NCBI GenBank assembly: GCA_035499075.1
Contig: DATJZN010000056.1
Span: 15,718-79,717, forward strand
DNA: 64,000 nucleotides
Direction: 5' to 3'
DNA from: Myxococcota bacterium
GTDB lineage: Bacteria; Myxococcota_A; UBA9160; SZUA-336
In this document: positions 107-52,629 of the stretch, one piece after another
Layout of the letters: every line of letters starts with the position of its first letter
Position numbering within the stretch: position 1 is the stretch's first letter
Notes under the pieces: model-generated
The model's input: only the letters and a program-made list of their open reading frames with translations
What the model was told of the DNA's origin: nothing
Databases searched by the model: none
Translations under genes and position numbers: made by a program

Positions 107-114
107 AGGCCCGG

Positions 115-3098: not shown

Positions 3099-5301
<2,203 letters not shown>

Positions 5302-20823: not shown

Positions 20824-21246
20824 AGCGTCACCCCGAGCGTGAGTGCGTCCTCGCCGTCGCGGTAGTAGCGCGCGCGGCGTCCCTGCGCTCGAAATCCGCA
20901 CGCGGCGTACAAGGCGAGCGCCGCGGCGTTGCCGCTGCGCACCTCGAGCGACACGTTGCGCGCGCCCGCGGCGCGCAACGTGTCGAGCGCGGCGTCGAGC
21001 AGCGCGCGTCCGAGCCCGCGCCGGCGCAGCCTCGTCTCGACCGCGATCGAGTGGAGCTCCGCTTCGTCGTCGGCGCGGAGCGCGAGCGCGAAGCCGACCA
21101 GGCGCGCGCCCTCCTCCGCGACCAGCGCCACGCCGGTCGGGCGCGCGAGCGCGGCGCGGTACGCGGCGGCGGTCCACGCCTCGGGCAGCGCGTCGGCCGC
21201 GAGCCGTGCGATCGCCGCCGCGTCGTCGGCCCGCGCGGCGCGCAGG

Positions 21247-21257
<11 letters not shown>
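20820..21257 (-). CDS. GNAT-family N-acetyltransferase (RimI-like)
   Basis: 145 aa with the acetyl-CoA motif ...RRRGLGRALLDAAL....GARNVSLEVRSGNAAALALYAACGF... Its start overlaps the 3' end of the response regulator gene. Confidence 0.75.
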
Positions 21258-22610
<1,353 letters not shown>

Positions 22611-22626
<16 letters not shown>

Positions 22627-24851
22627 GGCGCCTCGGTGCGCAGCGGAAGCTCGACGATGAAGCGGCTGCCGCGCGGGCGGTTGGCGGCGACGCGCACGTA
22701 GCCGGAGTGGTCGGAGACGATGCGCGACACGATCGCGAGCCCGAGCCCCGTGCCCGCGCGTTTGGTCGAGAAGCCCGCTTCGAACAGCCGCGCGCGGTCC
22801 TCGGGCTTGATGCCCGCTCCCGTGTCGGCGACCTGCAGGTGGATCGTGCCCACCGCCGCGTCGACGCGCGTCGACAGGCTGACCTTGCGCGGGCCCGGGC
22901 CGGCTTCGTCGATGGCCGCGACCGCGTTGTCGATCAAGTTGAGGATCACGCGCCGGATCTGCTGGCGGTCGAGGTCGAGCATGGGCACCGCCGGGTCGAG
23001 CGCGGTGGTGAACTCGATCGTCGCGTTGCCGCGGTACAGCTCGACGACCTCGGCGGCGACGCGGTTCAGGTCGGTCGGCACGGGGTCGGTCGCGGGCAGG
23101 CGCGCGAAGCTCGAGAACTCCGCGAGCAGGTGCTTCATCGCCTCGACCTCGGCCGTGATCGCGTCGGTGCTCTCGCGCAGGAGCGCGGCGGACTCCGGGT
23201 CCGCGAGCTTGCCGGCCAGCTTGCGGCGCAGCCGCTGCGCGGACAGCTGGATCGGCGTGAGCGGGTTCTTGATCTCGTGGGCGATGCGGCGCGCCATCTC
23301 GCGCCAGGCGGCCATGCGCTGCACGCGCATGAGCTCGGTCACGTCGTCGACGACGACCACGAAGCCCGCGGCCGCGCCCGCCGCGTCGTGCATGCGCGAC
23401 GCGGTCCAGTTGAGCGTGCGCATCTCGCCGGCCACCGCGAGCGGCATCTGCCGCCGCAGCGTCTCCTGCGGGCCCGACGCCAGACGGTGGAGCAGGCCGG
23501 TGAGCGCCTCGAGCGCAGGCCCGCCGAGCATCTCGCCGAGCTTCTTCCCGACCCACTCGCCCGCCGGCACACCCAAGAGGCGCAGCGCGGGCGGGTTGAT
23601 CGTGCGCACCGCGAGATCGGCGTCGAGCGACATCACGCCCGCGCCGACGGCGCGCAGGATGACCTCCATCTGCGTGCGGCGGCGCTCGAGGTCGGCGCGG
23701 TTCTTCGCGAGGTCGGTCGCCATGCGGTTGAAGCCGTCGACGAGCGCCGCGATCTCGTCGTGGCCGCCGCGCGGCACGCGCACGTCGAGGTTGCCGGCCG
23801 CCACCTCGGCCGTCGCGCCCGCGAGCTGCTCGATCGGCTCGGTGACCTGCTTGGCGAGGCGGAAGCCGATCCACGACGAGAAGAGCACGCTCGACAGCGT
23901 GATCATCGCTAGCAGCAGCATCATGCTGGCCTCGAAGGTGCCCTTGCGCGGCTGCAGGCGTTCGTACGCCGCGCGCGCGGAGCGGATGGCGGCCACGCGC
24001 GTCGAGATGTCGTGCGGCAGGAAGCGGTTCACCACGACGACGCCCGAGATCTCGCGCGCGTCGGCGCTCTGGTGCACGGGCACCACCGCGCGCACCAGCT
24101 CGCCCGGGCCGGCGCCCTGGATGACGCTGTGCTCCTCGCCCGCGAGGCCCGCGCGGATCAGCGCCGACGTCGGCGCCTCGAACGCCACGACCGCCACCTC
24201 GGGATGGCGCGCCGTCGCGAGCTCCTCGAGGTCGCGGTTGAACACCTCGACGACGCCGAGGTCGTACTCCGCCTGCTTCTGCGCGACGAACTCGCGCAGC
24301 GCGTCGAGCGAGCCCGGGCGCAGCAGCTTCTTCTCGTCGAGCTGCGCGGCGATCCGGCGCGCGAACGACAGCGAGGTGTCCTTCGCCTCCTTGTAGTACG
24401 CGTCCGCCACCTCGATCGACTGGCCCAGGCTGTCGGAGAGCTCGAGCTCGAACCACACGCTGACGGCGCGCGACACGAGCAGCGCCGACAGCACGAACAG
24501 CGCCGTCGACGACAGCGCCGTCGCGAACACGAACGACGTCACGAAGCGCGTGTTGAGCTTCGAGCCGAAGCGCCCCGCGCGGCGGTCGACGAACAGCTTC
24601 ACGACGTTGCGCGACAACAGGAACACGAGCAGGCCGATCAGCACGACGCTGACGTTCAGGATCGCCAGCAGCACGGTGTCGCTCGCGAGCGGGAGCGAGT
24701 GCGCGCGCGTCAGGAGCTCCTGTTCGACCGTGAACAGGAGCAGCAGAGCGGCGCCCACGCCCGCCGCGATGCGCCAATCGCGCCGGCGCCGCCAGCGCTC
24801 GGCGGGATCGGGGCTGCGCTCGGGTGGGTTCGCGGGTTCCAAGCGCCCCAA
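22611..24851 (-). CDS. sensor histidine kinase, NtrY-like (TM, HAMP, PAS, HisKA, HATPase)
   Basis: N-terminal hydrophobic helices, then a HAMP linker, a PAS-like segment, and the H-box (...ARRIAHEIKNPLTPIQLSAQRL). G1 and G2 boxes follow (...DTGAGIKPED...GTGLGLAIV). Start is probably TTG at 24849-24851 or 24840-24842. The rest of the 2,434-aa track ORF upstream is the antisense of the TPR gene. Confidence 0.8.
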
Positions 24852-24980
24852 CGCTAACGCAGGCGCGAATTTCCTTTCAACCTTTCCGCGCGCATGGCCT
24901 CGCCGTAAGACCGTGAAAAATCGCCGGTTTGGACGCGGTCCAGCGTCAAGAGTTACAGGGGGGATTCCGAAGAGGCCGGC

Positions 24981-27900
24981 ATGCAGCCGCGCCCGCGCAC
25001 GCCGTCCGTCCGCACGTCCCCGGAGCAGGCCGAGCGCATTCGGCGCTTGCTGCAGGGCTTCGCCACGAACCCGACCGACGCGCGCGCGTTCCGCACGCTC
25101 GAGGAGCACCTGTACCTCGAGGGGGCGTGGACGGAGCTCGCGAGCGTGTACGACTGCCGGCTCTCCGTGCTCGCGCCGACCAGCGCCGAGCGCGCCGAGG
25201 TGCTGTCGCGCGCGGCCGCGATCTACAGCGACCGCCTCGCCGACGTGGCACAGGCGCGCGCGCGCTACGAGGAGCTGCTGCGCATGCAGCCGCAGAACGC
25301 GGCCGCGCTGTCGAGCTTGCGGCGGCTGCTCGCGGCGGCGGGCGACGCGACGAGCGCGCTCCAGCTCGCGGAGGCCGAGGAGGCCCTGCCGCTGCCGCCG
25401 CGCGACCGCGCCCAGCTCTTCGCGGAGATCGGCCAGCTGTGGCGCGGCCTCGGCGACAAGGAAGAGGCGCGCCGCCGCTTCGAGGCCGCGCTCGAGCTCG
25501 ATCCCAAGTGCGACCCGGCGGTGCAGGGCGCGGCGCTGCTCGCCGAGGACGCCGGCGACCGCGCCCGCGCCCTCGCGCTGCACGAGAGCCGCCTGCCCGG
25601 GCTCACGGGCAACGTGCGCGCCGACGTGGTCGAGCGCATGGCGCGGCTCCTGCCGACCGAGGAGAGCGCGCGCCGCGCGGCGCTCCTGCGCGAGGTCGTG
25701 GCGAACCACCCCGAGCGGCGCGGCCCGCACGAGCGGCTGATCGAGATCGAGCGCGCGGCGCGGAACTACGCGGTCGTCGACGAGCTTCAGCGCGCGCTGT
25801 GGAAGCTCCTGCACGACCCCGTCGAGCGCGTCAGCCTGGCCAGCGGCGCGGCCGCGCTGCAGATGGACGAGGCGCAGAACGTCGAGTCCGCCGCGTACTG
25901 GGCCGAGCGCGCCGACGAGATCGCCTCCGACGACGCGGCCGTACAGAAGCTGCGCCTGCGCATCCACCGCAAGGCGGGCACGACGCGGGCGAGCCTCGAC
26001 GCGCTCGAGAAGCTGGCCGCGATCGAAGGCCACTCGCCCATGCGGCTGCTCGAGCTCGCCGTGCTGTACGAGCGCGAGGGCCAGTCGGCGCAGGCGATCG
26101 AGAAGCTCGAGCGCCTGCTCGCCCACGATGCCTACGACGCCGAGGCACTGGCGATCCTCGACCGCTGCCTGGCGCGCATGGGCCGCCACGCCGAGCGCGC
26201 CGAGGTGCTCGAGCGGCGCATGGCCGCCGCCGAGAGCAACGAGGACGCCGCCGACCTCATGGTCGAGCTCGGCGACCTGCACCTGCACGCGCTGGGCGAC
26301 GCCCGCAACGCCGAGGCCGCCTACCGCCGCGCGCTCGAGCAGGTGCCTGCGCACGCCGCGGGCGCCGCACAGCTGCGCGAGCTGTTGCGCTCGAGCGGCC
26401 GCGGCGGCGAGCTCTGTTCGCTCCTCGAAGGTCTGGCGCGCTCCGCACCGCAAGGGCGCGGGCGCGCGGCGCTCCTGTGCGAGCTGGCCCAGCTGCGGCT
26501 CGAGGCCGGCGCGCCGCCGGCCGAGGCGCACGCCGCGTACTCGGAGGCCCTGGAGTGCGACCCGAGCTGCGCGTCCGCGCTGGCGGGCATGCGCGAGCTC
26601 GCCGCGACCACCCGCGAGCCGCGGGCGCTGCTCGAGGTCGCCGAGCGCGAGCTCGCCCTCGAGCCGCCCGCCGAGCGCGCGGCCGCGCTCCTGGCCGACG
26701 TCGCGCAGGCTGCGCACGCGCTCGGCGAGCCCGAGCGGGCCCGCGCCGCCGCGCAGCGCTGGCTCGAGCTCGAGCCCTCGCCCGCCGCGCTGGGGCTCCT
26801 GGCCGAGCTCGCGCGCACCGACGGCGACTTCGCCGCGGAGGAGCGCTGGCTGGGCTCGCTCGAGGCCGTCGTCTCGGGCGCGGACCCGCGCGCCCACGCG
26901 CTCGTGTGCGTGCGCCTGGCCGAGCTCGCGCTCGCGAAGAGCGGGCCCGAGGCCGAGGCGGACGTGGAGCGCTGGTACCGCGCCGCGCGCGCGAGCGCGC
27001 CGACCGACGAGGCGCTCGGCGCGCGGCTCGTGGAGTTCTACCGCCGCACGCAGAAGCTGCCCGAGCTGGCGCGCGAGCTGCGCACACAGCTCGAAGCGGC
27101 CGGCGCCGCCGCGCCGCTCGCACAGGCGCTCGAGCTGGCGCGCACCCTGGCCGAGCTCGGCGACCTGGTGCAGGCGTCGGCCGTGCTGCAGCCGGCGTTC
27201 GAGCGCGAGCCCGAGTCCGTCGCCGCGGGCGACCTGCTCGAGAGCCTGCTCGCCGAACAGAACCGCATCGAAGAGCTGTGCGAGGTGCTCGCGCGGCGGC
27301 TGTCCCGCGAGCGCGACCCCGCGCGGCGGCGCGAGCTGGCGCACCGGCAGGCGGGCCTGCTGCTCGAAGGCCTGCGGCGCGCGCCCGACGCCATCGCCGT
27401 GCTGCGCGAGTTCGCCGACCCGACGCGCGACGGCCGGCTCGAGCACCTGTTCGCGCGCGCCCTCGAGGCCGGCGGCGAGACGCGGGAGCTCGAGAGCTGG
27501 CTCACCATGCGCGAGGGCCACGTCTCTGGGGCCGAGCGCACCGAGCTGCGCCTGCGTCTCGCCGCGCTGCTCGAGCGCGACGGCCGCGTCGCGGATGCGA
27601 TCGCTTGCCTGAAGCGCGCGCGCGACGGAGCCTCGAGCCCCGCGCTCGCCGCGACCGTGCGCGGCGCGCTGCTCGCGCTGCTGCGCGCGCACGGCACGGT
27701 CGATGACCAGCTCGCGTTCCTGGACGAAGGCATCCAGAGTGCGCCCGACGCGGAGGCGCGCGGCACGCTCCTCGTCGAGCGCGCGCGCATCTTCGCGGAA
27801 CGCGTGCGCGACCCGGCGCGCGCGCTCGCCGACTTGGAGCGCGCGCAGGCCGACGGCGCCCTGGGACCCGACGAGCTCCGACTCGTGGCCGAGCTCTCGG

Positions 27901-30900
27901 CCACGGCCGGCGCGCCCGAGCGCCAGGTGCACGCGCTGGAGCAGCTCGTCGAGACCGCGCGGGACCCCGAGACGCGGCGCGCGACGCGCCTCGAGCTGGC
28001 GCGCCTGTGGGCCGACGGTCCCGAAGCCGTGCGCGACGCCGCGCGCGGCGAAGAGATCTTGCGCGCACTGCTGCGCGAGAACGGCGCCGACGCCGACGCG
28101 TTCGACCGCTTGTCCGCGCTCTTCGAGCGGGCCGAGCGCGGCGTCGAGCTGCGCCGCTTGTTCGGCGAGCGCCTGGCCGAGAGCGCGCTGCGCCCCGGCG
28201 AGCGCGCGTCGCTGGCGCTGCGCCTGGCGCGCCTGCAGCTCGCGTCCGGCGACGCGCGCCAGGCCGTCGAGACGCTCGTCGGCGCGCGCGTCGGGGGCGA
28301 GACGCCGGACCCGGCCGTCGACGAGCTCCTGTACGGCGCGCTCGCACGCGCGGGGAACACCGGCGGCCAGATCAAGCTCGCGACCGAGCGCGCGCGCGGC
28401 GCGGCGGGTGCAGAGCGAGCGCGCTGGCTGCGGCGCTGGCTGACCGCGCTCGAAGCCGCGAGCCGGCCGGCGAGCGAGCGCTTGGAAGTCGTCGACGCGC
28501 TCTTCGCCGATGGCCCCGGCGACGCCGAGCTCCTGGCGCTGCGGCTGCCGCTCCTGCGCGAGGGCGCTCCGGCCGAGCGGCTCGCCGAAGGCCTCGAACG
28601 CGTGCTCGCGCGCGCCGACGCGGGCACGCCCGCCAGCCGGCGGCTGTGGGTGCGCGAGCTGCTGGCGCTGTACGAGGGTGCGCTCGAGCGGCCCGACCGC
28701 GCGCTCGCGCTCGTCGAGCGCGAGCTGGGCGCCGACTCCGGGCTGCGCGAGCCCGGCCTGCGCGCCGCGCGCGCGCTCGGCGACGAGTCGCGCGAGCTCG
28801 CGCTGCTGCGGCCGCTCGCCGGGGACGCCGGCCTCGCGCCCGCCGAGCTGCGCCGGCTCGGCCTGCTGCTCGCGCGCGCGGGCGAAGGCGACCTCGCCTA
28901 CACGATTCTGTGTCGCGCGCGGACCGCCGCGCCGCTCGACCGCGAAGTGCTCGAAGCGCTCGAGGCACTCGTGCGCGAATCGGGCGAAGACGGCGAGCTG
29001 CTCGGCGTGCTGTCCGCGCGCTTCGCGACCGAGGCCGGCGACGCGCGCCTGCGCGTGGCCCGCGACGCCGCCGCCGCGGCCGCGCGCGCGGGCGACGCGG
29101 CCGCCGAGCTGGCCTGGCTGCGCAAGCTCCACGCGCTGGCGCCGCTCGACCGCGAGGGCGCGTCGCGCTGGCTCGCGCTCGAGCGCCAGGCCGGTACGCC
29201 CGGCGGCCGGCTCGAGGCCGTGCGCGCGCGCGCCGCACTCGCGACCGAGCAGTCCGAGCGCGCCGAGCTCGCGGCGGCCGAAGGCGAGCTCCTCGCCGAC
29301 GGCGGCCAGCTCGCCGAGGCGAGCGCGTGCTACGCGCGCGCGCTGTCCGGCGCGCCGCGCGCGAAGCTGGCCTGGCTTCGCGCACAGAGCGAGCTGCTCC
29401 TGCGGCTCGGCCGCTCCGCCGAGCGCGTCGATCTGCTGCGCACGTTGGCGCGCCATCCCGAGGCGAGCGCCGACGAGCGGATGCGCTGGCAGCGCGAGCG
29501 CATCGAGCTGCTCGCCTCGCATCCCGAGCTCCGCGAAGAGGCCGCGCTCGAGCTGCGCATGTGGCTCGACTCCGACCCCGGCGCCTCGCGCGCAGCCCAG
29601 CTCGAGCGCATGCGCTCGCTGCTCGCGCTCTATGCCGAGCTCGGCCGCGACGCCGACTGGTGCGCCCTCGCGGAGCGCGCGCTGCCTCTCGCGCCCGACT
29701 CCGAGCGCGCCGAGCTCGAACGCCGCATCGCCGAGCGGCTCGGCACCTCCCTCGGCTCGACCGATCAGGCGATCTCGGCCTGGCAGCGCGTGCTCGCGCG
29801 CAACGCGAACGACCGGGACGCCCTCGCTGCGCTGGCCGGCCTGTTGCGCCGCCCCGGCGACGAGGCGCGCCGCGCGGACACGCTCGAGCGGCTGGCCGCG
29901 TCGGGCGCCGAGCACGCCGAATCACTCTGGCTCGCCGCCGCGCGCTTGCGCTGGCAGTCGCTCGGCGACGCGCCCGCCGCGCTCGTCGCGGTCGACCGCG
30001 CGCTCTCGCTCGCGCCGCGCCTCGACGGCGCGCACGACCTGCGCTCCGAGCTCTGCTCGCACCTCGACCGCCACGAGGACGAGGCCGCCTCGCTGCGCGC
30101 GCTGCTGGCGACCGACGCCGAGGGCCCGATGGCGGGCGACCGCTGGCTGCGGCTCGCCCAGCTCGTGGCCGCCCGGCGCGAGGGCTGGAGCGAGGCGATC
30201 GAAGCCGCCGAGCGGGCGCTGGCGACGGCGCCCGCCCAGACGTCCATGGTGCGCGAGGTGCGCCGCGTGTTCGAGCGGGCGAACGCCTGGGAGCGCGCAC
30301 GCGACCTGTTGCGGGAGGAGATCGGCGCGTCGACCGGCGAGGAGGCGCTCGGCCTGCACCGCCGGCTGGCGCGCATCGCCTGGGACGAGCTCTCCGACGA
30401 CGAGCTCGCCTGCAAGTCGCTCGCGGCGCTCGACGACGCGGAAGCGCTCCGCGGCGACGACCGCGAGCGCTACGCCGCTGCGCTCGCCGAGCAGGGGCGC
30501 TGGCGCGAGTCGCTCGACCAGCGCCACGCAGCGCTCCTCGAGTCGGGCGACCTCGCGACCGCGGCGCGCTGGCTCGAGCTGGCCCGCGACGCGCTCGCCA
30601 AGCTCGACGACCCGTCGCGCGCCCGCGAGGCCTGCGACCGCGCGCTCGAGCGCGAGCCAAAGCACCGCGACGCGCTGCAGCTGCGCACGCTCCTGCACGG
30701 CCGGCTGTGCGATCCGGCGCGCGAGTTCGGCGACGTGCTCCAGCTGGCCGAGCTCGAGTCCGACCCCTCGTCTGCGGCGGCGCTGTTCACACGCGCCGCC
30801 GAGATCGCGCGCGACCGGCTCGGCGATCCGCTGCGCGCCTGGGCGCTCTTCCGCACCGCGCTGAAGAAGGACGGCGCGCACCTGCCCGCCCTGCTCGGCG

Positions 30901-32741
30901 CCGGCCAGATCGCGCTCGAGCGCCACGAGTGGGCCGAGGCCGAGCGCGCCTTCGGGCTCGCGGCGTCGCTGTTGCGCGGGTCGCCCGACGAGGACAAGCT
31001 CGGCGGCGTGGCGCGCTCGGCGGCCTCGGCCGCGATCGCGCAGGAGCGCTTCGCCGAGGGCTTCCGCTACCTCGAGCTCGCGCTCGAACGCGAGCCCGCG
31101 CACCCCGAAGCGCTCGACGCGATGGCGGGCCTGGCCCTGCGGCTGGGCGCGCACGCGCGCGCGCGCGAGTGCCTCGAGACGCGGCTGCGCTCGCTCGAGC
31201 TCTCGCCCGAGGAGCGCGCCGACCGGCTCGTGAAGCTGGCGCAGGCGTGTGAGGGGCTCGCGCAGCTCGACCGCGCCGCGGCCGCGCTCGAAGAGGTGCT
31301 CTCGATCCGGCCGAGCGACGAGGTGTCACGCGCGCACGCCGTCGACCTGCTCGAGCGCCTCGGCGAAACCGAGCGCGCGGTGCTCCAGCTCGACGCCTGG
31401 AGCGAACACGTGCCGGCGGAGTTCGCGGCCCGCCTCGCGCTGCGCGCCGCGCAGCTCGAGCTCTCACAAGGCGACCGCGCGCACGCGCGCGAACGCCTCG
31501 AGGCGATCGTACAGGCACCGGCCGCGCCCGACGACGCGTGGGTGGCGCTGCTCGACCTGGTGCGCACCGACGACGGAGCGGCGGCCGGGCTCGATCTGGC
31601 GTCCGACGCGCTCGCCGCCGTGAAGGCGCCAAAGCCGCGCGCGGCGCTCTTGTGGACCGCGGCGTCGGCCTCGGCGTCGCTGGGCCAGAACGGCCCCGCG
31701 GCGCGCCGTGCGATGGAGGTGCTCACCTGCGACCCGGCGCACGTGGCGGCGGCGCGGATGCTCGCGGGCAACCTCGGCCACCTGGAGGATTGGGGCCAGG
31801 CGGTGAAGCTGCTCGAGCGCACGCTCGACAGCGCGCACCCCGAGCGCCCGGTCGAGGCCGAGCTCTGGGAGGCGGTGGGCCGGGCATACGCGGGTCCGCT
31901 CGAGGACATCGAGCGCGCGCAGCGCTGCTACCGCCGCGCGCTCGAGTGCAACCCGCTGCGCCAGAGCGCGCGCGAGGCGCTGGCGGACACGACTGCTTTC
32001 GATCCCGCGGCGCACCGCGAATCGGTCGAAGCGCACCGCGGCCTGCTCGAGCGACACCCGGGGCGGCGCAGCTCGTGGCGCTCGCTCGAGCGGATCGCCG
32101 CGCACTGGCGGCGCGACCGCGCGCAGACGACGTGCGTGGCCGTGCTGCAGGCGCTCGGGCCCGCGGGCGGCGCCACGCCGATCGAAGGCGCGCCGCTCGT
32201 CGACGTCGGCCCGCCGGCCGACTCGACGGTCGCGGCCGCGACCGAGCTCCTGCTCGCCGTCGGCGAGGCCGGCGCGCTGCCGGAGCCGAGCGAGCCGCGT
32301 CCCTACCCCGCGTTCGCGGGCGCGCTCGAAGAGGCGCTCGGCGCGCTCGTCGGCCCCGCATGGCGGCTCTCCGACGCCGCGCTGCGCGCGATCTGGAGCC
32401 AGCCGGGCGAGGACTCCACGCAGACGGGCGACGAAATCGGCCGGCGTGCGCGCCGCCGCCTGAAGCGCGCGCTGCGCAGCTTCGACACCGAGATGCTGCG
32501 CGTGCTCGCGCCCGACGTCTGGCGCGAGCAGGTGCTGGGCCAGGCCGCGGCGAAAGTGCTCGCGGCCGGAGGCATGGAGCTGCGCGACCTCTTGCTCGAG
32601 CTGCTCGCGGGCTGGCCCACGACGGCCCGGCTCGAGCTCCGCGCGAGCGGCGACGTGGCGTCGGCGGTCGCGCTCTGCCCGCCGGCGCGCGTGCTCTTGC
32701 TGCGCGTCGCGAGCGCCGTGATCGGAGCGCTGGGGCTCTAG
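24981..32741 (+). CDS. giant (2,586-aa) all-TPR-repeat protein, function unknown
   Basis: One uninterrupted 7,761-nt ORF with GC-rich third positions and an AAGAGG ribosome-binding site 7 nt upstream of its ATG. The product is A/L/R/E-rich, with 34-residue TPR-like signatures recurring from N- to C-terminus (AEAAYRRALEQVP, ALELDPKCDPA, ALEREPKHRDAL, ALECNPLRQSA...). There is no signal peptide or TM segment. Confidence 0.8.
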   Translation: MQPRPRTPSVRTSPEQAERIRRLLQGFATNPTDARAFRTLEEHLYLEGAWTELASVYDCRLSVLAPTSAERAEVLSRAAAIYSDRLADVAQARARYEELLRMQPQNAAALSSLRRLLAAAGDATSALQLAEAEEALPLPPRDRAQLFAEIGQLWRGLGDKEEARRRFEAALELDPKCDPAVQGAALLAEDAGDRARALALHESRLPGLTGNVRADVVERMARLLPTEESARRAALLREVVANHPERRGPHERLIEIERAARNYAVVDELQRALWKLLHDPVERVSLASGAAALQMDEAQNVESAAYWAERADEIASDDAAVQKLRLRIHRKAGTTRASLDALEKLAAIEGHSPMRLLELAVLYEREGQSAQAIEKLERLLAHDAYDAEALAILDRCLARMGRHAERAEVLERRMAAAESNEDAADLMVELGDLHLHALGDARNAEAAYRRALEQVPAHAAGAAQLRELLRSSGRGGELCSLLEGLARSAPQGRGRAALLCELAQLRLEAGAPPAEAHAAYSEALECDPSCASALAGMRELAATTREPRALLEVAERELALEPPAERAAALLADVAQAAHALGEPERARAAAQRWLELEPSPAALGLLAELARTDGDFAAEERWLGSLEAVVSGADPRAHALVCVRLAELALAKSGPEAEADVERWYRAARASAPTDEALGARLVEFYRRTQKLPELARELRTQLEAAGAAAPLAQALELARTLAELGDLVQASAVLQPAFEREPESVAAGDLLESLLAEQNRIEELCEVLARRLSRERDPARRRELAHRQAGLLLEGLRRAPDAIAVLREFADPTRDGRLEHLFARALEAGGETRELESWLTMREGHVSGAERTELRLRLAALLERDGRVADAIACLKRARDGASSPALAATVRGALLALLRAHGTVDDQLAFLDEGIQSAPDAEARGTLLVERARIFAERVRDPARALADLERAQADGALGPDELRLVAELSATAGAPERQVHALEQLVETARDPETRRATRLELARLWADGPEAVRDAARGEEILRALLRENGADADAFDRLSALFERAERGVELRRLFGERLAESALRPGERASLALRLARLQLASGDARQAVETLVGARVGGETPDPAVDELLYGALARAGNTGGQIKLATERARGAAGAERARWLRRWLTALEAASRPASERLEVVDALFADGPGDAELLALRLPLLREGAPAERLAEGLERVLARADAGTPASRRLWVRELLALYEGALERPDRALALVERELGADSGLREPGLRAARALGDESRELALLRPLAGDAGLAPAELRRLGLLLARAGEGDLAYTILCRARTAAPLDREVLEALEALVRESGEDGELLGVLSARFATEAGDARLRVARDAAAAAARAGDAAAELAWLRKLHALAPLDREGASRWLALERQAGTPGGRLEAVRARAALATEQSERAELAAAEGELLADGGQLAEASACYARALSGAPRAKLAWLRAQSELLLRLGRSAERVDLLRTLARHPEASADERMRWQRERIELLASHPELREEAALELRMWLDSDPGASRAAQLERMRSLLALYAELGRDADWCALAERALPLAPDSERAELERRIAERLGTSLGSTDQAISAWQRVLARNANDRDALAALAGLLRRPGDEARRADTLERLAASGAEHAESLWLAAARLRWQSLGDAPAALVAVDRALSLAPRLDGAHDLRSELCSHLDRHEDEAASLRALLATDAEGPMAGDRWLRLAQLVAARREGWSEAIEAAERALATAPAQTSMVREVRRVFERANAWERARDLLREEIGASTGEEALGLHRRLARIAWDELSDDELACKSLAALDDAEALRGDDRERYAAALAEQGRWRESLDQRHAALLESGDLATAARWLELARDALAKLDDPSRAREACDRALEREPKHRDALQLRTLLHGRLCDPAREFGDVLQLAELESDPSSAAALFTRAAEIARDRLGDPLRAWALFRTALKKDGAHLPALLGAGQIALERHEWAEAERAFGLAASLLRGSPDEDKLGGVARSAASAAIAQERFAEGFRYLELALEREPAHPEALDAMAGLALRLGAHARARECLETRLRSLELSPEERADRLVKLAQACEGLAQLDRAAAALEEVLSIRPSDEVSRAHAVDLLERLGETERAVLQLDAWSEHVPAEFAARLALRAAQLELSQGDRAHARERLEAIVQAPAAPDDAWVALLDLVRTDDGAAAGLDLASDALAAVKAPKPRAALLWTAASASASLGQNGPAARRAMEVLTCDPAHVAAARMLAGNLGHLEDWGQAVKLLERTLDSAHPERPVEAELWEAVGRAYAGPLEDIERAQRCYRRALECNPLRQSAREALADTTAFDPAAHRESVEAHRGLLERHPGRRSSWRSLERIAAHWRRDRAQTTCVAVLQALGPAGGATPIEGAPLVDVGPPADSTVAAATELLLAVGEAGALPEPSEPRPYPAFAGALEEALGALVGPAWRLSDAALRAIWSQPGEDSTQTGDEIGRRARRRLKRALRSFDTEMLRVLAPDVWREQVLGQAAAKVLAAGGMELRDLLLELLAGWPTTARLELRASGDVASAVALCPPARVLLLRVASAVIGALGL

Positions 32742-32754
32742 GCCGCGAGAGCGG

Positions 32755-33684
32755 TCAGCTGCGGGAGCGCGCGAGGGCCGGCTGCAGGACGCCGGCCTCG
32801 GGCGCGAGCTCGCGCTCGGCGCTCGGCGTCTCGAGCGTCCAGCAGGACGGGTTCGCGCGGATCTCCGCGACGAGCGCCTGGTGGAGCTGGTGGCCGCCGC
32901 GCACCGCCTTCACGTGGCCCTGCAGGGGCACGCCGAGCAGCGCGAGGTCGCCGACGAGGTCGAGCACCTTGTGGCGCGCGAACTCGTCGCGGAAGCGCAG
33001 GCCCTCGGGATTCAGCACGCGCGCGTCGTCGAGGACGATCGCGTTGGCGAGCGAGCCGCCGCGCGCGAGGCCGATGGCGCGGAGGCGCTGGGTATCCTTG
33101 AGGAAGCCGAACGTGCGCGCCGGCGCGATCTCGCGCGCGAACACCTCGGGGGTCAGCACGAGCGACTCGATCTGCTGCCGGCCGATGGCCGGGTGCGCGT
33201 AGTCGATCTCGACCGAGAGCTTCAACTCGCGCGAAGGGACGACCCGCACGTAGCGGTTGCCGTCGCGGACCTCGATCGGGCGGCGGATCACGAGGCGGCG
33301 GCGCATGCGGCCCTGCGCGCGGATGCCGGCCTGCTGAATCAGGTAGACGAACGCAGCGGCGCTGCCGTCCATGATCGGGACCTCGGGTCCCGAAACGCCG
33401 ACCGTGCAGTTGTCGATGCCCATGCCGCGCAGCGCGGAGACGAGGTGCTCGATCGTGGAGAGCCGCGCGTCCTCGTTGCCGAGCGTGGTGGCGAGCGTCG
33501 TGTCGATCACCCACTCGGCACGCGCCGGGAAGCGGACGGGGTGCTCGCCGTCATTGCGGACGAACAGGAGCCCCGTGCCGGCGGCGGCGGGCTTGAGCGA
33601 CAGCTCGACCGGCTCGCCTGTGTGGAGACCGATGCCGGTACACTGGACCGGCGACGCGATGGTTTGTTCTACGCCCCTCAGCAC
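32755..33684 (-). CDS. lpxC: UDP-3-O-acyl-N-acetylglucosamine deacetylase
   Basis: ...[21 protein letters not shown]...[13 protein letters not shown]...[26 protein letters not shown]..., LpxC zinc-binding motifs. Start chosen at the GTG at 33682-33684 (~309 aa). The 78 upstream codons of the track ORF have AT-rich third positions and are probably leader. Confidence 0.85.
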
Positions 33685-33963
33685 GGCTTGGCCCCGTTCC
33701 CCAGATGCAAGCTTGCCAGAAGCACTCGCCGTTGCTGCGGTCCCAACGCCATGAGCTGTGATCCCCCCCACGCGCGTCCGAGCTTGAGCAACCTGCGTGC
33801 CAGCTGCCTCTCCTACCGAATGAAATCGGAAGAAATCGCGAAGTTCTGGATTCATCTTGTGATTTGGCGCACATCGGCCGCAAGGGCGCCGGGGTGGCTC
33901 CCCCGCGTGCGCCGGCAACCGGCCCGGTCAGAGTGACGTTTCGATTACGCCGTGATGAGATGA
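33685..33963 (-). promoter_or_regulatory. atypical ~280-nt low-GC leader / promoter region upstream of lpxC
   Basis: The segment ...ccgaatgaaatcggaagaaatcgcgaagttctggattcatcttgtgatttggcgcacatcg... has much lower GC than its flanks. Its open frame uses AAT, CCA, GAA, CTT, GAT and TTT codons that this genome otherwise avoids. Confidence 0.35.
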
Positions 33964-36585
33964 TCACGAGCCCGGGGTGGGCGCGGCGGCGCGACCGCTC
34001 ACCCGGTCGAGCTCGTCCAGGAGGTCCTTGGCCGACTGGAAGCGGTCGGCCGGGGACTTCTGGAGGCAGCGCAGGATCAGCTTGGCCAGGCCCTCGGGGA
34101 GGTCGGCCTTGATGCTGCGCGGATCGGGCGGGGGCGTGTGCACGTGGTGGTACGGCACGTTGCCCTTCTGGAAGGGCAGCTCGCCGGTAGCCAGCTCGAA
34201 GAGCGTGACGCCCAGCGAGTAGATGTCGGTCCGGTGGTCGACGTCGCGACCCAGGGTCTGCTCGGGCGACATGTAGAAGGGCGTGCCCGAGATCATGGTC
34301 GTCGCGTTGCGCACCTCTTCCATGAGCTTCGCGAGGCCGAAGTCCATGATCTTCACGTGCTTCTCAGTCGTCCACATCGTGTTGGCGGTCTTGATGTCGC
34401 GGTGCACGACCTTGCGGCCGTGCGCGTACGCGAGCGCCGACGCCATCTGGCGCAGGATGTAGCTGGCCGCGTTCGCGGAGACGGCGCCGCGCTGGCGCAG
34501 GATTTCCTTCAGGGTCGTGCCCTCGACGAGCTCCATGGCCATGTAGAAGCCGTGCTCCGACTCGCCGGCGTCGTAGACGGTGACGATGTTCGGGTGGTTG
34601 AGCTGCGCCGCGGCCTTCGCCTCGCGCAGGAAGTTCTTCAGCGCGTTCGGATTGCCCCGCAGGCCCTCGGGTAGCACCTTGTACGCCACCTCGCGCTCGA
34701 GCACGGAGTCGCGCGCGAGATACACGACGCCCATGCCGCCGCGGCCCAGCTCGCGCACGATCTCGTAGCGCTTCTGCGTCGTCGGAATCTGCGTCGGGAC
34801 CGTCTGCGGCGGCGCCGTGTCGCCCGCCGGCTTCTTGCCGAGCTGCGCCTTGGTGCGCTCGAGGCACTCGCCCACGTCGCGATAGTGGTAGTCGAACGAG
34901 AGGATGCGCTCGTAGATGTCGACGGCGCCCGCGATGTCGCCCTTGCGCTCGTTCGCGCGCGCGAGCTCGTAGAACGCCTCGACGTTCGACTTGGTGAGCT
35001 GGTCCGAGCCCGCCGCCTCTTCGAATTTCTTGACGGAGAGGCTGTGCATGCCCTTGGCCTGGAACATGCGGCCCAGGATTGAGCAGGCCTCGCCGTAGCG
35101 GGCGTCGCCGGCGGGAATCTGCTGCAGCAGGCGGATCGCAGGATCGGTCTCGTTGAGCTCGGCGTAGAGCTTGCCCGCTTCGAAGGCACTGCCCGCCTTC
35201 TCGAGCATCTCGGCCTGCTTGTCCTTCTTGCCGACCTGGCCGTAGCAGATCGCGGCGTCGGCGAACTTCGCGCACGACGCGTACGCGTCGGCCGCGGGCT
35301 CGAGCTCCCCCGCCGCGCGGTACGCCTCGGCCGCGGCCGGGAAGTCCTGGGCGTTCGCGTACGCCGCGCCGGCCTCGGCGAAGCGGCCGAGCTTGCGGAA
35401 CAGATCGCCCGCCGCCGCGTGCTCGCCGGCCTTCACGAGGAACTCGACGGCCTCGGCGTCCTGGCCCTTGTCGCGCAGGAACTCGCCCTGCAGCCGCGCG
35501 GCGCCGACTTCGTCCCCCAGGCGTTCGAGCGCCTTGGCCGCGAGGTCGCCGCGGCGCACGCGCAGGAACAGCTCCGCCGCGCGTTTGTAGTTGCCCGTCT
35601 GGAACGCGACCTTCGCCGCCGGCCCGAACGACTCGGAGCGCACGAAGATGTTCTCGGCCTCTTCGAAGCGCTCGAGCTTCACCAGGATCTCGCCGGCCTT
35701 CTTGGCGATGCCGCGCATCTCCTTGGCCTTCTGGTCGCTCTTCGCGCCGGCCGTGCCGCCCTCCTCGTTGAACGCGTTGATGAGCGCCTCGGCCGCCTGC
35801 GCGTCGGCACCGGCCTTCAAGTAGGCCTGCGCGGCGTGGCGGTGGAAGCCGATCTTCTCGTAGCACTTGCCCGCCTCGCGGAAGTTCTCGGCGCGCTCGA
35901 ACATCTCTCCGGCGACCGAGAACTTGCCCGCAGCGAAGTAGCACTGCGCGGCCTCATCGTGGCGCTCGAGCTGCGCGAAGATCTTCCCGGCCTGCTCTTC
36001 CTTGCCGACCTTCTTGTAGAGCTCCGCCGCCTCGTCGAAGCGGTTCTGGTCGTAGCGGACCTCGGCGGCGCGCGCGAAGAGCTCGGCGTCCAGGAACAGG
36101 TCCGCCGCCTCGTCCTTCATGTTGTGGCCGAGCAGGTACTCGCCCGCCGCCTCGGCGCCCTTCTCCTCGCGGAGCTCCTCCGCCTTCTTGAGGTGCTTCT
36201 TGCCCTCTTTGCCCGACGGCGCGGCGACGGCCTCTTCCTCGGCCGCGTGCGCGCCCTTCTTGGCCTTCGCGGCCTCCGGCGCGGCCGCGGCGTCCTTCTT
36301 GGCGCCTTTGGCCGGCGCCGCCGACTTCCTCTTCCTCTTCCCGCCTCCGCCCGCGAGCGCGAACAGCACGAGCACGGCGGCGGCGCCGGCGACGTAGTGG
36401 GCGTCGGCGCGCAGGGTCTCGAGCTGAGCCATGACCGCCTTGCTGGCGGGCCCTGCCTTCGAGGCCTGCAGCTTCGCCTGCACCATCGCGGAGTCGCCCC
36501 CGTGCTGGAGCCACTCCCCCGCACCCCCGAGCAGGAGCAAGGGGATGGCCAGGAGAAACGCGAGAATCCGCAGGGCCGTGCGCAC
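33964..36585 (-). CDS. membrane-anchored Ser/Thr protein kinase with N-terminal TPR/Sel1-like repeat region and a C-terminal Hanks kinase domain
   Basis: Kinase motifs sit at the C-terminus: [27 protein letters not shown]. An N-terminal signal-anchor ([20 protein letters not shown]) is followed by about 560 aa of 19/38-aa A-, K- and E-rich repeats (...[37 protein letters not shown]...). The start is uncertain: GTG at 36583-36585, or ATG at 36484-36486. Confidence 0.8.
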
Positions 36586-36652
36586 GAGCTTAGAAATCGA
36601 CCAGACGCCCTCTCTATTTGAGCGCCTGGCGCGAGTGACTCGTGTGTCTCGC

Positions 36653-37699
36653 CTAGAGCAGCTTGTCCTGGCGGCCCGGAGTGCCCGCGCGCGGCGTGGC
36701 CCCGAAGTGCCGGTACGCACGCTCCGTGGCGACGCGCCCGCGCGGCGTGCGGTCCAGGTAGCCCTCCTGGATCAGGAACGGCTCGTAGATGTCTTCGATG
36801 GTGCCGCGGTCCTCGCCGATCGCCGCGGCGAGCGTGTCCAGGCCGACGGGTCCGCCGCCGTACTTCTCGATCAGCGCGCGCAGGAGCTGGCGGTCCATGC
36901 GGTCGAAGCCCGCTTCGTCGACGTCGAGCCGGCCGAGCGCGAAGCGCGCGAGCTCGCCCGTGATCTCGCGCGCCCCGTCGACTTCGGCGAAGTCGCGCAC
37001 GCGCCGCAGCAAACGGTTCGCGACGCGCGGCGTGCCGCGCGAGCGGCCGGCGATCTCGTTCGCGCCCGCGGCGTCGAGCGCGAGGCCGAGGATGCGCGCG
37101 CTCCGCGCGAGGATCTTCACGAGGTCGCTCGCCGGGTAGTAGTCGAGACGCGCGATCACGCCGAAGCGGTCGCGCAGGGGCGACGTGAGCAGCCCGGCGC
37201 GCGTGGTCGCGCCGATCAGCGTGAAGCGCGGCAGGTCGATCTTCACCGTCTGCGCGCTCGGACCCTGCCCGATCACGAGGTCGAGCTTCCCGTCCTCCAT
37301 CGCGGGATAGAGGATCTCCTCGACGGCGGGTGCGAGCCGGTGGATCTCGTCGATGAACAGCACGCCGCCGGGCTCGAGGTTGGTGAGGATCGCCGCCAGG
37401 TCGCCCGCGCGCTCGATCACCGGCCCCGCGGTCACGCGGAGCGGCGCGCCCATCTCGCGCGCGATGACGTGCGCGAGCGCCGTCTTGCCCAGGCCGGGCG
37501 GCCCGTAGAACAGGGCGTGGTCGAGCGGCTCGCCGCGGTCGCGCGCCGCGCGGATGAACACGCGCAGGTTCTCGCGCAGCGCGTCCTGCCCGACGAACTC
37601 GTCGAGCGAGCTCGGGCGCAGCTTCTCGTCGACGCCGCGTTCGAGCTCGAGCGAGTCGCCGCGCAGCGGCTCGGCGCGGCGTTCATCCGCTCGCGGCAC
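36653..37699 (-). CDS. ruvB: Holliday junction branch migration ATPase RuvB
   Basis: ...[51 protein letters not shown]..., a AAA+ ATPase with a C-terminal winged helix. Confidence 0.95.
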
Positions 37700-47836: not shown

Positions 47837-47905
47837 GCGCGGGAAAGTCTAGACGGATCCTCCCCCCCGTGCGACCTTCGCCCGTCCCCGGATTCGCGAG
47901 GCCAG

Positions 47906-49813
47906 ATGCGCGTTCAGCCGAGGTTTGCCCAGCTCGCGGCGGGCGCCGCATTCGCCGTCGTGGTCGCCACTGCGGCGCTCTGGCTCGACCCGCCGTCGCA
48001 GGCCGGGGCGCAGGGCCGCCCGACCCAGTACCTGGCGCGCTTCGAGGGCAGCACCCTCGACGGCAAGCGCGCCGGCTCGGACCTGTTCCAGAAGCGTCGC
48101 GGCGTGATCTTCTTGTGGGCCGACAAGGACCCCGACCGCGACCGCGCCGCGAAGCTGCTCACGGGCCTCACGCGGGACGCGGAGCGCGCGAACGTGGGCG
48201 TGCTCGGCGTGAGCCGCGACCCCGACCCCGCGCTGGCGCAGCACTACGCCAGGCTGCGCGGCTTCGAGTTCCCGATCCTGGTCGACGGCGACGGCGCGAT
48301 CGCGCGCAAGCTCGACGCCCCGCCCGGCACGTCCATGCTCGTGCTCGTCGACGCCGAGGGCAAGATCGTGGCCCAGCTCGCCGGGCTCGCGAGCCAGCCG
48401 ACCGAGATCGACGCCGGCCTGGTGGCGCAGATGCGCCAGCTCATGCAGCTCCCGCCCGACGACGCAGCCGCGACGCCGATCTTCGGCGTACTGCCCGCCG
48501 CGCCGCCGTTCTCGGTCACGAGCACCGACGGCGCGCACACCGCGCAGCTCTCGGACTACTCGGGCAAGGTGCTCGTGTTCCTCTTCTTCCTGCCCACCTG
48601 CCCGCACTGCCACGCGATGCTGAAGTACCTGAACGGGCTCGCCGCGCAGCTCGGCGCCCAGGATCTCGCGATCGTCCCGGTGTCGGTGTCGGACAAGAAG
48701 TACGTGGTCGAAGAGATGGTGAGCGACCTGAAGCTCGGCTTCCCCGCCTACCTCGACCCCGACCGCAAGGCGCAGAACGCCTACGGCTCCCTCGGTGAGG
48801 TGCCCGAGGTCTTCGTGATCGACCGTGCGGGCAAGGTCGTGCAGCGCACGGCAGGCGACTCGCCCCGTATCGAGGCGCTGGTGACGCTCTCCATCCGCCA
48901 CGAGCTGGGCGGCCCGCCGCAGATCCTGCTCGACAAGGCGGGCTACAGCGGCGACGAGTTCTGCGCGGTGTGCCACCGCGATCAGCACGCGACGTGGCTG
49001 CTCACCGGGCACGCGAACGCGTGGGACACGCTCGTCGAGCACGGCGCCGACCGCGACCCGCAGTGCCTGCGCTGCCACACCGTGGGCTTCGGCAAGCCCG
49101 GCGGCTTCGACCCGGAGCAGCGCCCCGACCACCTGAAGGGCGTGCAGTGCGAGAACTGCCACGGTCGCGGCGGCCCGCACCAATCGCCCGACTTCGCGAA
49201 GACGGGCTTCGAGCCCGTCTGCCTGGGCTGCCATGACGCCGACCACTCGCTGCACTTCGTGTACGCGGAGCGGCTGCCCATGATCTCGCACGCGGCGAAC
49301 GCCGCCGCGCTCGCCAACCTGTCCGTCGACGAGCGGCGCAAGCTCGCCGAGAAACGCGCCAAGCGCGACCGGCAGATCTTCGACCCCGGCGAGTTCGTCG
49401 GCTCGGCGGCGTGCGAGAGCTGCCACGCGAAGGAAGCCAAGCTGTGGGCCGAGTCGGGCCATGCGCGCGCGTTCGAGACCCTCGACAAGCGCCACGAGGC
49501 CAAGAACGCCGACTGCCAGAAGTGCCACACCACGGGCTTCGGCCAGCCGACCGGCTTCCCGACGGGTGGGGCTACACTCGCGAGTGTAGGCTGCGAGAGC
49601 TGTCACGGGCCGGGCAAGCGCCACGTCGAAGACCAGGGCAAGACGTCGGGCACGATCCTGGCGCTCACCAACAAGTGCGACACGTGCGCGATCCAGATGA
49701 TCTGCGGCACGTGCCACGACGACGCGAACGACAAGGGCTTCGAGTTCGCCATCGAAACCAAGCTCGCGAAGATCAAGCACGGCTTCCGCGAGAAGAAGAC
49801 GGCGGAGAAGTGA
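47906..49813 (+). CDS. secreted fusion protein: two TlpA/redoxin-like thioredoxin-fold domains followed by an octaheme c-type cytochrome domain
   Basis: Signal peptide [27 protein letters not shown]. Thioredoxin fold with active site LPTCPHC. Then eight CxxCH motifs (CAVCH, CLRCH, CENCH, CLGCH, CESCH, CQKCH, CESCH, CGTCH) arranged as two tetraheme cytochrome c554/c552-like modules (CxxCH..W..GH). The ATG is at 47906-47908. Confidence 0.8.
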
Positions 49814-50568
49814 CGACACGGGGCGACGCCGACACCTGGATCGCGGTGCGGGAGGGCCTGCGCGACCTCGTCGCGGACGGCATCGACTTCGTACCGCGCG
49901 CGGAGCGCAGCGCGAAGCCGGCCGCGCCGCGTGCGCCGAGCGGCTTCCGGCCGCGCGTCGCGCCGCTCGCCCCGCCCGCGCACGTCGGCGCAGATGCGGC
50001 CGCGAAGGCGGCGCTGCTCGAGGCGGTGCGGGCGGAGATCGGCGACTGCCGCCGGTGCACGCTGTGCGAGCGCCGCACGAACATCGTCTTCGGCGAGGGC
50101 TGCCCCGAGGCGCGCGTCGTGTTCGTCGGCGAAGGCCCCGGCGAGGAAGAGGACAAGAGCGGCCGCCCGTTCGTCGGTCGCGCGGGCGAGCTGCTCACCA
50201 AGATGATCGAAGCGGTGGGCTGGCGGCGCGAGGACGTCTACATCTGCAACATCGTGAAGTGTCGCCCGCCGGGAAACCGCGACCCCCAGCCGCTCGAAGT
50301 CGCCACGTGCGAGCCCTTCCTGCACCAGCAGATCCGGGCGATCGCACCCGCCGCGATCGTCACGCTCGGCAAGCCGGCGATCTCGGCGCTGCTCGGGCGC
50401 GTCGTGCCGATCACCAAGCTGCGCGGGCGCTGGCAGGCGTGGCAGGGCATCGAGGTCATGCCGACGTACCACCCCGCGTACCTGCTGCGGAATTACACGC
50501 GCGAGACGCGCCAGGCGGTCTGGGACGATCTGCGCGCCGTGCGCGAGCGTGTCGAGGGCGCGCGCTAG
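49810..50568 (+). CDS. uracil-DNA glycosylase, family 4
   Basis: ...[27 protein letters not shown]...[14 protein letters not shown]... are family-4 UDG motifs. The preceding Cys cluster ([14 protein letters not shown]) is the [4Fe-4S] cluster typical of this family. GTG start overlapping the cytochrome TGA (GTGA). Confidence 0.85.
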
Positions 50569-51832: not shown

Positions 51833-52629
51833 CGCGCGCGCGCTGCGGCATCGTGCTCCACCCCGCCGGGCACACGCTCTCGCCGGTACTGCACCGCACC
51901 GCCTACGCGGCGCTCGGGCTCGACGCGGAGTTCGACGTCTGGGACGTGCCCGCCGAGGAGCTCCGCGCGAAGCTGGCGGAGCTTCGCGGAGTAACACAAC
52001 TATGTGTATCCCTGCCGCACAAGGAAGCGGCGCTCGCTCTGGCCGTCGAAGTCTCGGAGTCGGCGCGCGCGATCGGCGCGGCGAACACGCTCACCGCGCG
52101 CGGGGGCGGCTTCGCGGCCGACAACACCGACTGGCTCGGCGTCACGGCCGCCGTCGAGCCGCACGGCCCGTGGCGCGGCAAACGCGCGCTCGTGCTGGGC
52201 GCGGGAGGCGCGGCGCGCGCCGTCGTGTTCGCGCTGCGCCAGCTCGGCATGGACGTCGCCCTTCACAACCGCACGCGCGCGCGCGCCGAACGCGTCGCCC
52301 GCGAGCTCGGCGCGCGCGTCGCCGGCTCCGACGAACCGTGGGAGATGCTCGTGAACGCCACGTCGGTGGGCATGGCGCCCGACGCCGGCGCCACCCCGCT
52401 CGCCGCCGAGAAGCTCCGCGCCGGCGCGTTCGTGTTCGACACCGTCTACCGCCCGCTCGAGACGCGGCTCCTGCGCGAGGCGCGCCAGCGGGGCCTGCGC
52501 GTGCAGGACGGCCTCGCCATGCTCGTGTCTCAAGCCGTCGAGCAGATCCGCATCTGGAGCGGCCGCCGTGCCGACGCGGCGCCGTTGCGCCAGGCCGCAC
52601 TCGACGCGCTACGCTCGGCCGCACGATGA
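51829..52629 (+). CDS. aroE: shikimate dehydrogenase
   Basis: ...QLCVSLPHKEAALALA...IGAANTL......NTDWLGV...LVLGAGGAARAV... ATG overlapping the upstream TGA (ATGA). 266 aa. Confidence 0.85.
   Translation: MTRARCGIVLHPAGHTLSPVLHRTAYAALGLDAEFDVWDVPAEELRAKLAELRGVTQLCVSLPHKEAALALAVEVSESARAIGAANTLTARGGGFAADNTDWLGVTAAVEPHGPWRGKRALVLGAGGAARAVVFALRQLGMDVALHNRTRARAERVARELGARVAGSDEPWEMLVNATSVGMAPDAGATPLAAEKLRAGAFVFDTVYRPLETRLLREARQRGLRVQDGLAMLVSQAVEQIRIWSGRRADAAPLRQAALDALRSAAR

Follow-up and report, generated by a model that had tools for sequence, protein, structure and literature searches.

The DNA analysed here is a 64,000-nucleotide stretch of a Myxococcota bacterium (GenBank assembly GCA_035499075.1, contig DATJZN010000056.1, positions 15,718 to 79,717), and this whole stretch is called the window throughout. 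It carries one very long gene on the plus strand, coding for a giant protein of tetratricopeptide repeats (TPR) which founds a length-conserved family without a characterised member in uncultured Myxococcota. The coordinates of the gene, of the parts of its product and of its neighbours are collected in Table 1. An initial annotation, made from the sequence alone, had described an uninterrupted open reading frame (ORF) with GC-rich third codon positions behind an AAGAGG ribosome-binding site, and a product rich in A, L, R and E. Both descriptions held. No earlier in-frame start codon was found upstream of the ATG, the GC fraction at codon positions 1, 2 and 3 was 0.84, 0.54 and 0.95, even over the whole gene, and the four residues made up 60% of the protein. 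One public database protein (P0001) was 100% identical to the window protein, and HTO71996.1 (“hypothetical protein [Myxococcota bacterium]”) was found in the same 90%-identity cluster.

DNA of 72-79% GC gives very long non-coding ORFs, and one of them overlaps the giant gene. The antisense ORF 22611..29915(-), with 2,434 codons and a GC fraction at third positions (GC3) of 0.88, stays open for 4.9 kb across it. The gene itself might then be a comparable chance ORF and no real gene. This reading is already refuted: a GC3 of 0.95 with 0.54 at second positions is a coding signature, Pfam TPR families matched above their gathering scores, about 100 orthologues were conserved over the full length, and AlphaFold2 (AF2) models reached predicted local distance difference test (pLDDT) values of 91-95. 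The antisense ORF is the frame of an NtrY-like kinase (real gene 22611-24851) that continues antisense to the TPR gene. Its extension is an artefact, as had been noted initially, and the frame remains open because of the extreme GC3, which is a known side effect. A gene caller based on ORF length could extend the kinase wrongly through this stretch.

The initial description of the product as one TPR-like solenoid was borne out by four approaches. A Pfam scan returned TPR-type families only, with TPR_8 at 48.7 bits (gathering score 25.7), TPR_1 at 39.2 (27.8) and TPR_2 at 34.1 (27). An iterated hidden Markov model (HMM) of the repeat marked 56 TPR-like segments from residue 72 to 2575, the strong ones spaced by 70-72 residues (72, 144, ... 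424, 496, 568 ... 2080, 2150, 2221, 2293). Self-similarity scanning with BLOSUM gave 72 as top offset (z 6.2 versus shuffles), with harmonics at 143-144, 214 and 287-288 and sub-peaks at 17, 34-37 and 55. Finally, AF2 models were obtained for residues 760-1700 and 2236-2586. The former stretch has the weakest sequence repeat signal; with a 56-sequence alignment as input, 52 helices of 9-19 residues with short loops were predicted in its 941 residues at a mean pLDDT of 91, corresponding to one hairpin per 36 residues in an unbroken solenoid. Curated profile matches over threshold and tandem helix-turn-helix hairpins of ~34 residues, arranged as a solenoid, place the protein in the TPR superfamily. 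Neither a hydrophobic stretch nor a signal peptide was found at the N-terminus. The highest 19-residue Kyte-Doolittle hydropathy was 1.75, within an Arg-containing C-terminal helix, so that a transmembrane segment is unlikely. Since the N-terminus is not hydrophobic and the hydropathy maximum contains arginines, the protein is presumably cytoplasmic. In agreement with the initial annotation, Pfam, NCBIfam, PADLOC and the AF2 models revealed no catalytic or nucleotide-binding domain. No NCBIfam family reached its cut-off, and PADLOC gave no defence-system match.

Conservation is concentrated at the two ends. In an alignment of 98 homologues 167 columns were conserved at >=90%, 118 of them Ala or Leu, and these columns were densest at residues 1-200 and, most of all, at 2300-2400. 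The last hairpins (residues 2293-2392), with the motif GRxxAGPLED...YRRALE.NP...AREALAD...HR.LL...P.R..S.R, held 19 such columns per 100 residues versus 1-12 elsewhere. The AF2 model of residues 2236-2586 (pLDDT 94.7, predicted template modelling score 0.92) placed TPR-like hairpins up to residue 2392 and, behind a loop, a compact C-terminal domain packed against the last TPRs. Within this domain, the arginines at alignment positions 87/88, in the Arg-rich helix RRARRRLKRALR, were nearly invariant. The last ~150 residues had been reported to break the repeat pattern; a distinct end does exist, but it comprises 172 residues (2415-2586) after a 22-residue loop. With residues 1-140 or the 330 C-terminal residues as BLAST queries, collinear matches were obtained only within the size class of ~2,600 amino acids. 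A profile of the C-terminal domain gave 181 matches among 1.84 billion cluster representatives. In all 150 matches listed (of 181) the domain stood at the protein end or within ~55 residues of it. Nine of these 150 proteins had 2,560-2,659 amino acids and the others, which we read as metagenomic fragments, were shorter; none of the 150 exceeded 2,700. The domain had no counterpart in Pfam, NCBIfam or PDB.

Table 1. Features of the giant TPR gene, its product and its neighbours (positions in the window, except for the PilZ genes, whose positions refer to the related loci named).
Feature	Position	Strand	Basis or remark
Giant TPR protein, coding sequence, 2,586 aa plus stop	24981..32741	+	ATG start; GC3 0.954; public identical protein
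AAGAGG ribosome-binding site, 5 nt 5' of ATG	24970..24975	+	Read off the sequence
TPR-like alpha-solenoid, ~66 helical hairpins = ~33 double units of ~72 residues	25038..32156	+	Residues ~20-2392
Conserved N-terminal block, residues ~20-140; P31, F37, L40, E41, E42, W50, L53, Y57, R60 diagnostic	25038..25400	+	Columns conserved at >=90%, 98 sequences
Most conserved block, last TPR-like hairpins, residues 2293-2392	31857..32156	+	19 columns >=90% per 100 residues; pLDDT 96-98
Loop from solenoid to C-terminal domain, residues 2393-2414 (22 residues)	32157..32222	+	DSSP coil, model residues 158-179; least conserved stretch
Family-specific all-helical C-terminal domain, residues 2415-2586 (172 aa)	32223..32738	+	AF2; profile search
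Arg-rich helix RRARRRLKRALR in C-terminal domain, residues 2488-2499	32442..32477	+	Alignment; helix at model residues 253-264
NtrX-like sigma54-dependent response regulator, REC-AAA+-HTH_8	21247..22620	-	Pfam; best NCBIfam match NtrX
NtrY-like sensor histidine kinase, transmembrane region-HAMP-PAS-HisKA-HATPase, divergent	22611..24851	-	Pfam; TTG start
lpxC, convergent, longest-ORF limits	32755..33918	-	Pfam LpxC 350 bits; TIGR00325 337 bits (cut-off 187)
Ser/Thr kinase, N-terminal TPRs and C-terminal Pkinase (residues 652-899)	33964..36720	-	Pfam; upstream of lpxC, same strand
PilZ genes of related loci	L003:17878-18222; L126:17980-18330; L127:18022-18360; L128:18031-18372	same as TPR gene	
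PilZ genes of related loci	L129:14064-14279; L130:13952-14296; L131:13921-14274	same as TPR gene	

A first database search yielded 1,804 matches at E <= 1e-10, among them many Myxococcota proteins of 2,600-4,000 amino acids, and the top ~100 matches formed one tight size class. From this class 98 homologues with 25-100% identity could be aligned over the full length almost without gaps. They measured 2,528-2,702 amino acids, with a mean of 2,610 and a standard deviation of 30. Over the repeat region of 2,150 residues the largest insertion or deletion comprised 10 residues, compared with members at ~26% identity, and no whole repeat was gained or lost across the family. Repeat number and total length were thus shown to have stayed fixed while identity fell to ~25%. 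We define the family by the N-terminal block, ~66 hairpins, the specific C-terminal domain and a length of ~2,530-2,700 amino acids, and the window protein has all four. An array of several smaller genes in relatives would have spoken against an intact giant gene; single genes of the same length were found in ~100 clusters. Conservation of architecture and neighbourhood in other genomes, proposed initially as a check, was seen in the 98 full-length homologues and in ten loci with the same gene order.

The distribution of the family was followed with a degenerate DNA motif, hand-built from residues of the N-terminal block and run on species-representative genomes, the matches being confirmed by tblastn. 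At least 119 loci were found, 81 of them confirmed. Nearly all belonged to metagenome-assembled genomes (MAGs) labelled Myxococcota, Deltaproteobacteria or Myxococcales, and all members from the protein search with an organism name came from uncultured Myxococcota MAGs, where they were annotated as “hypothetical protein” or “tetratricopeptide repeat protein [Myxococcota bacterium]”. No cultured genus appeared among the at least 119 motif loci; the sole species-level label, “Haliangium ochraceum”, belongs to a MAG (L075) which is not a family match. The giant TPR gene occurs in one copy, is inherited vertically and has a fixed spot in a housekeeping region of an uncultured Myxococcota clade. 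Clear N-terminal matches were also seen in nine loci (L009, L022, L031, L043, L066, L070, L076, L079, L084) from MAGs labelled as Geobacter, Spirochaetales/Spirochaetaceae, Gammaproteobacteria, Opitutales or Desulfobacterales. Six of these loci (L022, L043, L066, L070, L076, L084) had the usual pyrK or NtrY-like gene upstream. Mislabelled taxonomy or bin contamination seems likelier here than an occurrence of the family outside Myxococcota.

The nearest known protein is GltI of M. xanthus, also called AgmK (MXAN_4863), a TPR protein of the cytoplasm that belongs to the Agl-Glt focal adhesion for gliding. It has 3,822 amino acids and acts in the gliding machinery (PMC11761067, PMC3169522), is ~1,100 Å long with a helical C-terminal domain and multiple predicted docking sites (PMC11761067), and lacks a signal peptide and a transmembrane segment (PMC3169522 Table 1). 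Gliding focal adhesions recruit GltI, and by AlphaFold prediction it binds several FHA domains of GltG (PMC11761067, PMC3169522). No other relevant giant TPR protein of Myxococcota emerged from the literature search. The initial statement that TPR-only proteins of more than 2,000 amino acids are rare and uncharacterised was therefore overstated, given a studied GltI and the many Myxococcota proteins of 2,600-4,000 amino acids among the 1,804 matches.

Is the window protein simply the GltI orthologue of this lineage, a platform of the Agl-Glt system binding the GltG FHA and GltJ GYF domains? Both are giant, cytoplasmic proteins of the same phylum in which a helical C-terminal domain comes after the TPRs, and both lack a signal peptide and a transmembrane segment. 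The dominant repeat period of 72 residues is common to the window protein and to the GltI-like proteins P0080 and P0087, and TPR blocks of the family aligned to GltI-like arrays with hhalign probabilities of 97-99.6%. These alignments, however, fell anywhere in the GltI-like arrays, which marks them as generic repeat similarity; for the same reason a 97.9% match of the penultimate TPR block was discarded, equal matches being found throughout the arrays. The size classes are distinct (2,586 for the window protein and 2,610 ± 30 for its family versus 3,822 for GltI and 3,400-4,000 for GltI-like proteins). The family has its own N-terminal block, and collinear matches of either terminus were not found in the GltI-like class. 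Comparing the last 187-200 residues of the family with the C-termini of 16 GltI-like proteins, hhalign gave probabilities of 0.1-0.2%, in line with the size limit among the C-terminal-domain matches listed. Finally, neither the window nor the ten related loci contained glt or agl genes. We consider orthology to GltI quite unlikely; the giant TPR family most resembles GltI but stands outside it.

The GltI-like reference set used in these comparisons was assigned by the synteny of P0080 with gltD/E/F/G-like genes and not through M. xanthus GltI itself. The gene of P0080 (3,965 amino acids) is preceded by genes for TPR (1318 amino acids), TPR (497), an 87-residue and FHA (689) proteins, which fit gltD, gltE, gltF and gltG in size and domains (PMC3169522 Table 1). 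Downstream in the same locus (L006:1-9510, 22078-26404) an FHA-GAF-guanylate/adenylate cyclase gene and then a response regulator / histidine kinase pair were observed. A search to name the class of 3,400-4,000 amino acids as M. xanthus AgmK returned hypothetical proteins only, mostly short and from Nannocystaceae and MAGs. The last 320 residues of P0080 matched many short “hypothetical” proteins of 340-530 amino acids, P0080 itself not being returned. Among these were P0294 of Paraliomyxa miuraensis (346 amino acids) and P0310 of Nannocystis sp. (419 amino acids), and some of the matches came from genomes of cultured Nannocystaceae with long contigs. The GltI-like C-terminal domain may be a separate gene, or the giant genes may have been split by gene callers.

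The giant TPR gene is embedded in housekeeping genes: purL, purB, cdsA, hisG, pnp, rbfA, infB, nusA and pyrD/pyrK, then ruvB, ruvC, yebC and dnaK in the window. Ten related loci had a common order of rimP-nusA-infB, pyrD-pyrK (with or without a GNAT gene), giant TPR, lpxC, TPR kinase and ruvBAC, the last three elements on the strand opposite to the giant TPR gene. A divergent NtrY/NtrX-like pair had been proposed initially across 129 bp. The domains of the kinase agree with this, the response regulator had NtrX as best NCBIfam match (506 bits, under the 600-bit cut-off), and a kinase start at TTG 24851 would give the intergenic distance of 129 bp. The kinase orthologue in locus L131 gave a weak NtrY_N match. 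Among 58 informative family loci the pair was the first upstream neighbour in 30 and PyrK in 15. The convergent lpxC was likewise recovered by Pfam and TIGR00325, 13 bp from the TPR stop codon; its true start probably lies near 33680. Its position apart from other lipid A genes, pointed out in the initial annotation, is normal; in E. coli lpxC closes the dcw cluster. The neighbouring Ser/Thr kinase had been called a TPR/Sel1-repeat protein. TPRs and a Pkinase domain were found, but no Sel1 family among Pfam matches at E <= 0.001. The usual domain layout of bacterial Ser/Thr kinases is the reverse of this N-terminal TPR and C-terminal kinase arrangement. The kinase gene and lpxC may be co-transcribed, because they share a strand, are ~45 bp apart and were paired in all ten loci. 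Taken together, the initial suggestion of a signalling or envelope scaffold drawn from this neighbourhood stands only in part: the NtrYX-like pair is frequent and not universal, and the vicinity of lpxC is weak evidence for an envelope role because conserved housekeeping genes surround the locus.

As lpxC lay directly next to the giant TPR gene, in convergent orientation, at every locus examined, a role in lipopolysaccharide synthesis had to be weighed. LapB (YciM) is a TPR protein at the cytoplasmic face which controls LpxC turnover, and the window protein, also a TPR protein of the cytoplasmic side, might regulate LpxC stability in a similar manner. The NCBIfam LapB models did match, but their scores of 22.2 and 19 bits were far under the cut-offs (363 and 474). 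Furthermore, the window protein is ~6.6-fold longer than LapB, lacks the N-terminal membrane anchor, and ends in an all-helical instead of a rubredoxin-type domain; its gene and lpxC are not co-transcribed, because they are convergent. A LapB-like function is very unlikely. PrsT, the TPR lipoprotein of XrtA/PEP-CTERM systems, was rejected as well (TIGR02917 122.6 bits versus a cut-off of 312.2, no signal peptide), and further named TPR families of NCBIfam also stayed far under their cut-offs. SgmX of M. xanthus is a TPR adaptor of ~1,060 amino acids which stimulates type IV pili together with MglA; compared by description only, it is also a large cytoplasmic TPR protein of the same phylum, though much smaller. 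Generic TPR superhelices (designed CTPR arrays, the TPR domain of O-GlcNAc transferase, MamA, TTC21B/IFT-A) have 3-20 repeats versus ~66 here, and they differ from the window protein in its 36-residue hairpins, its 72-residue double-repeat pattern and its unique C-terminal cap.

The most telling neighbour was not visible in the initial annotation, as the window does not contain it. Directly downstream of the giant TPR gene and on the same strand, a small PilZ gene of 71-117 codons was found in all seven loci of a distant clade, at a spacing of 21-132 bp in six of them and with a 4-bp overlap in L128. Four directly scanned loci gave Pfam PilZ scores of 37-41 bits (gathering score 22.5), L130 and L131 had precomputed PilZ matches, and the 71-residue copy of L129 matched weakly. 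By tblastn no such gene was present in the window or in its two closest sequenced relatives, all three having only 13 bp between the TPR stop and lpxC; a 146-residue ORF downstream in L002 had no Pfam match. As L131 carries both the PilZ gene and the NtrYX-like pair, the ancestral layout was probably ntrX-ntrY divergent from giantTPR-pilZ, with a loss of the PilZ gene in the sub-lineage of the window. The PilZ proteins kept the RxxxR motif. Their second motif for cyclic di-GMP (c-di-GMP), DYATTLGAGG, is non-canonical, which makes c-di-GMP binding uncertain. In the M. xanthus PilZ paper (PMC8316039) no link was found.

The conserved neighbours PilZ, NtrYX-like pair and TPR kinase suggest a link to signalling. 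One could go further and regard the giant protein mainly as a signalling hub which gathers the PilZ protein (as c-di-GMP input), the TPR kinase and the NtrYX-like system, with no function as a structural ruler. TPR arrays are classic protein-docking modules, the PilZ gene looks like an operon partner in all seven distant loci, its Pfam scores in the four scanned directly being over the gathering cut-off, the kinase accompanies the gene in 10/10 loci, and the NtrYX-like pair stands divergent in just over half of the informative ones. Nevertheless, the sub-lineage of the window lost PilZ and kept the protein unchanged, and with the non-canonical second PilZ motif c-di-GMP binding is uncertain. 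Both lpxC and the kinase gene lie on the other strand, inside the conserved housekeeping block, and a hub has no obvious need for ~66 repeats held for so long. We hold this alternative to be rather improbable.

With moderate confidence we favour a cytoplasmic docking scaffold or “ruler” of fixed geometry, tied to signalling proteins; a GltI replacement, a pure signalling hub and a LapB-like regulator are less well supported. A precise architectural role is suggested because repeat number and terminal domains were kept over deep divergence at a fixed position in the core genome. The protein is an elongated cytoplasmic solenoid of ~33 double repeats, with the conserved N-terminal block at one end and, at the other, the 172-residue helical domain docked on the most conserved last repeats. 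Specific partners would bind at both ends of the solenoid, and docking sites in between would be provided by the many TPR grooves, an arrangement like that put forward for GltI in the M. xanthus gliding focal adhesion. Candidate regulators or partners would be PilZ (ancestrally), the NtrYX-like pair and the TPR Ser/Thr kinase.

Several points weigh against such a scaffold. Inherited synteny of housekeeping genes could account for the gene order, with no functional tie between the neighbours. For the role of the protein here PilZ cannot be essential, because it is absent from the window and the nearest relatives. The constant repeat number shows constraint and not its purpose. A conserved sigma54 -24/-12 site (GG-N10-GC, TGGCAC-N5-TTGCW) was absent from 42 kinase/TPR intergenic regions. 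Also, the solenoid length of roughly 60-70 nm is an estimate extrapolated from the published 0.29 Å/residue of GltI and from the pitch known for superhelices of designed TPRs. The only sigma54 candidate in the window, TGGACGCGGTCCAGCG, was rejected, as just 5/11 specified positions matched and it was missing in the closest relative.

A bolder version of the fixed-geometry scaffold can be imagined, namely a new cytoskeleton-like element outside Glt gliding. Here a rigid superhelix of ~60-70 nm would set by its exact length a spatial dimension or the spacing of envelope or polar machinery, the terminal domains would serve as anchors, and assembly or partner choice would be under control of c-di-GMP (through the ancestral PilZ) and of phosphorylation by the NtrYX-like system or the Ser/Thr kinase. 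We regard this as an unlikely outcome.

What emerges is a well-delimited new family of a known protein kind, not a new mechanism. Its members belong to uncultured Myxococcota of soils and sediments, a widespread clade, and giant repeat proteins of this sort are usually passed over in annotation as “TPR repeat protein”. Should the protein turn out to be a second giant scaffold, independent of GltI, more cytoplasmic platforms would be known in Myxococcota, and a natural case would be at hand for how repeat number encodes length. The giant TPR family comes with a testable list of partners.

Some further observations were made on the surrounding genes. The GNAT acetyltransferase was fused to a PyrK-like protein (DHODB Fe-S / NAD-binding) in four loci (L003:8551-9819, L128:8638-9942, L130:4391-5773, L131:733-2073) and was a separate gene in L001 and L002. 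At the equivalent place of the window lies ORF 20831-21391(-), which had no Pfam match. The same holds for the long window ORFs 47852-49819(-), 49606-50664(-), 50459-51997(-) and 31-1659(+). The ORF 52002-53894(+) codes for a glutamate/leucine-type dehydrogenase.

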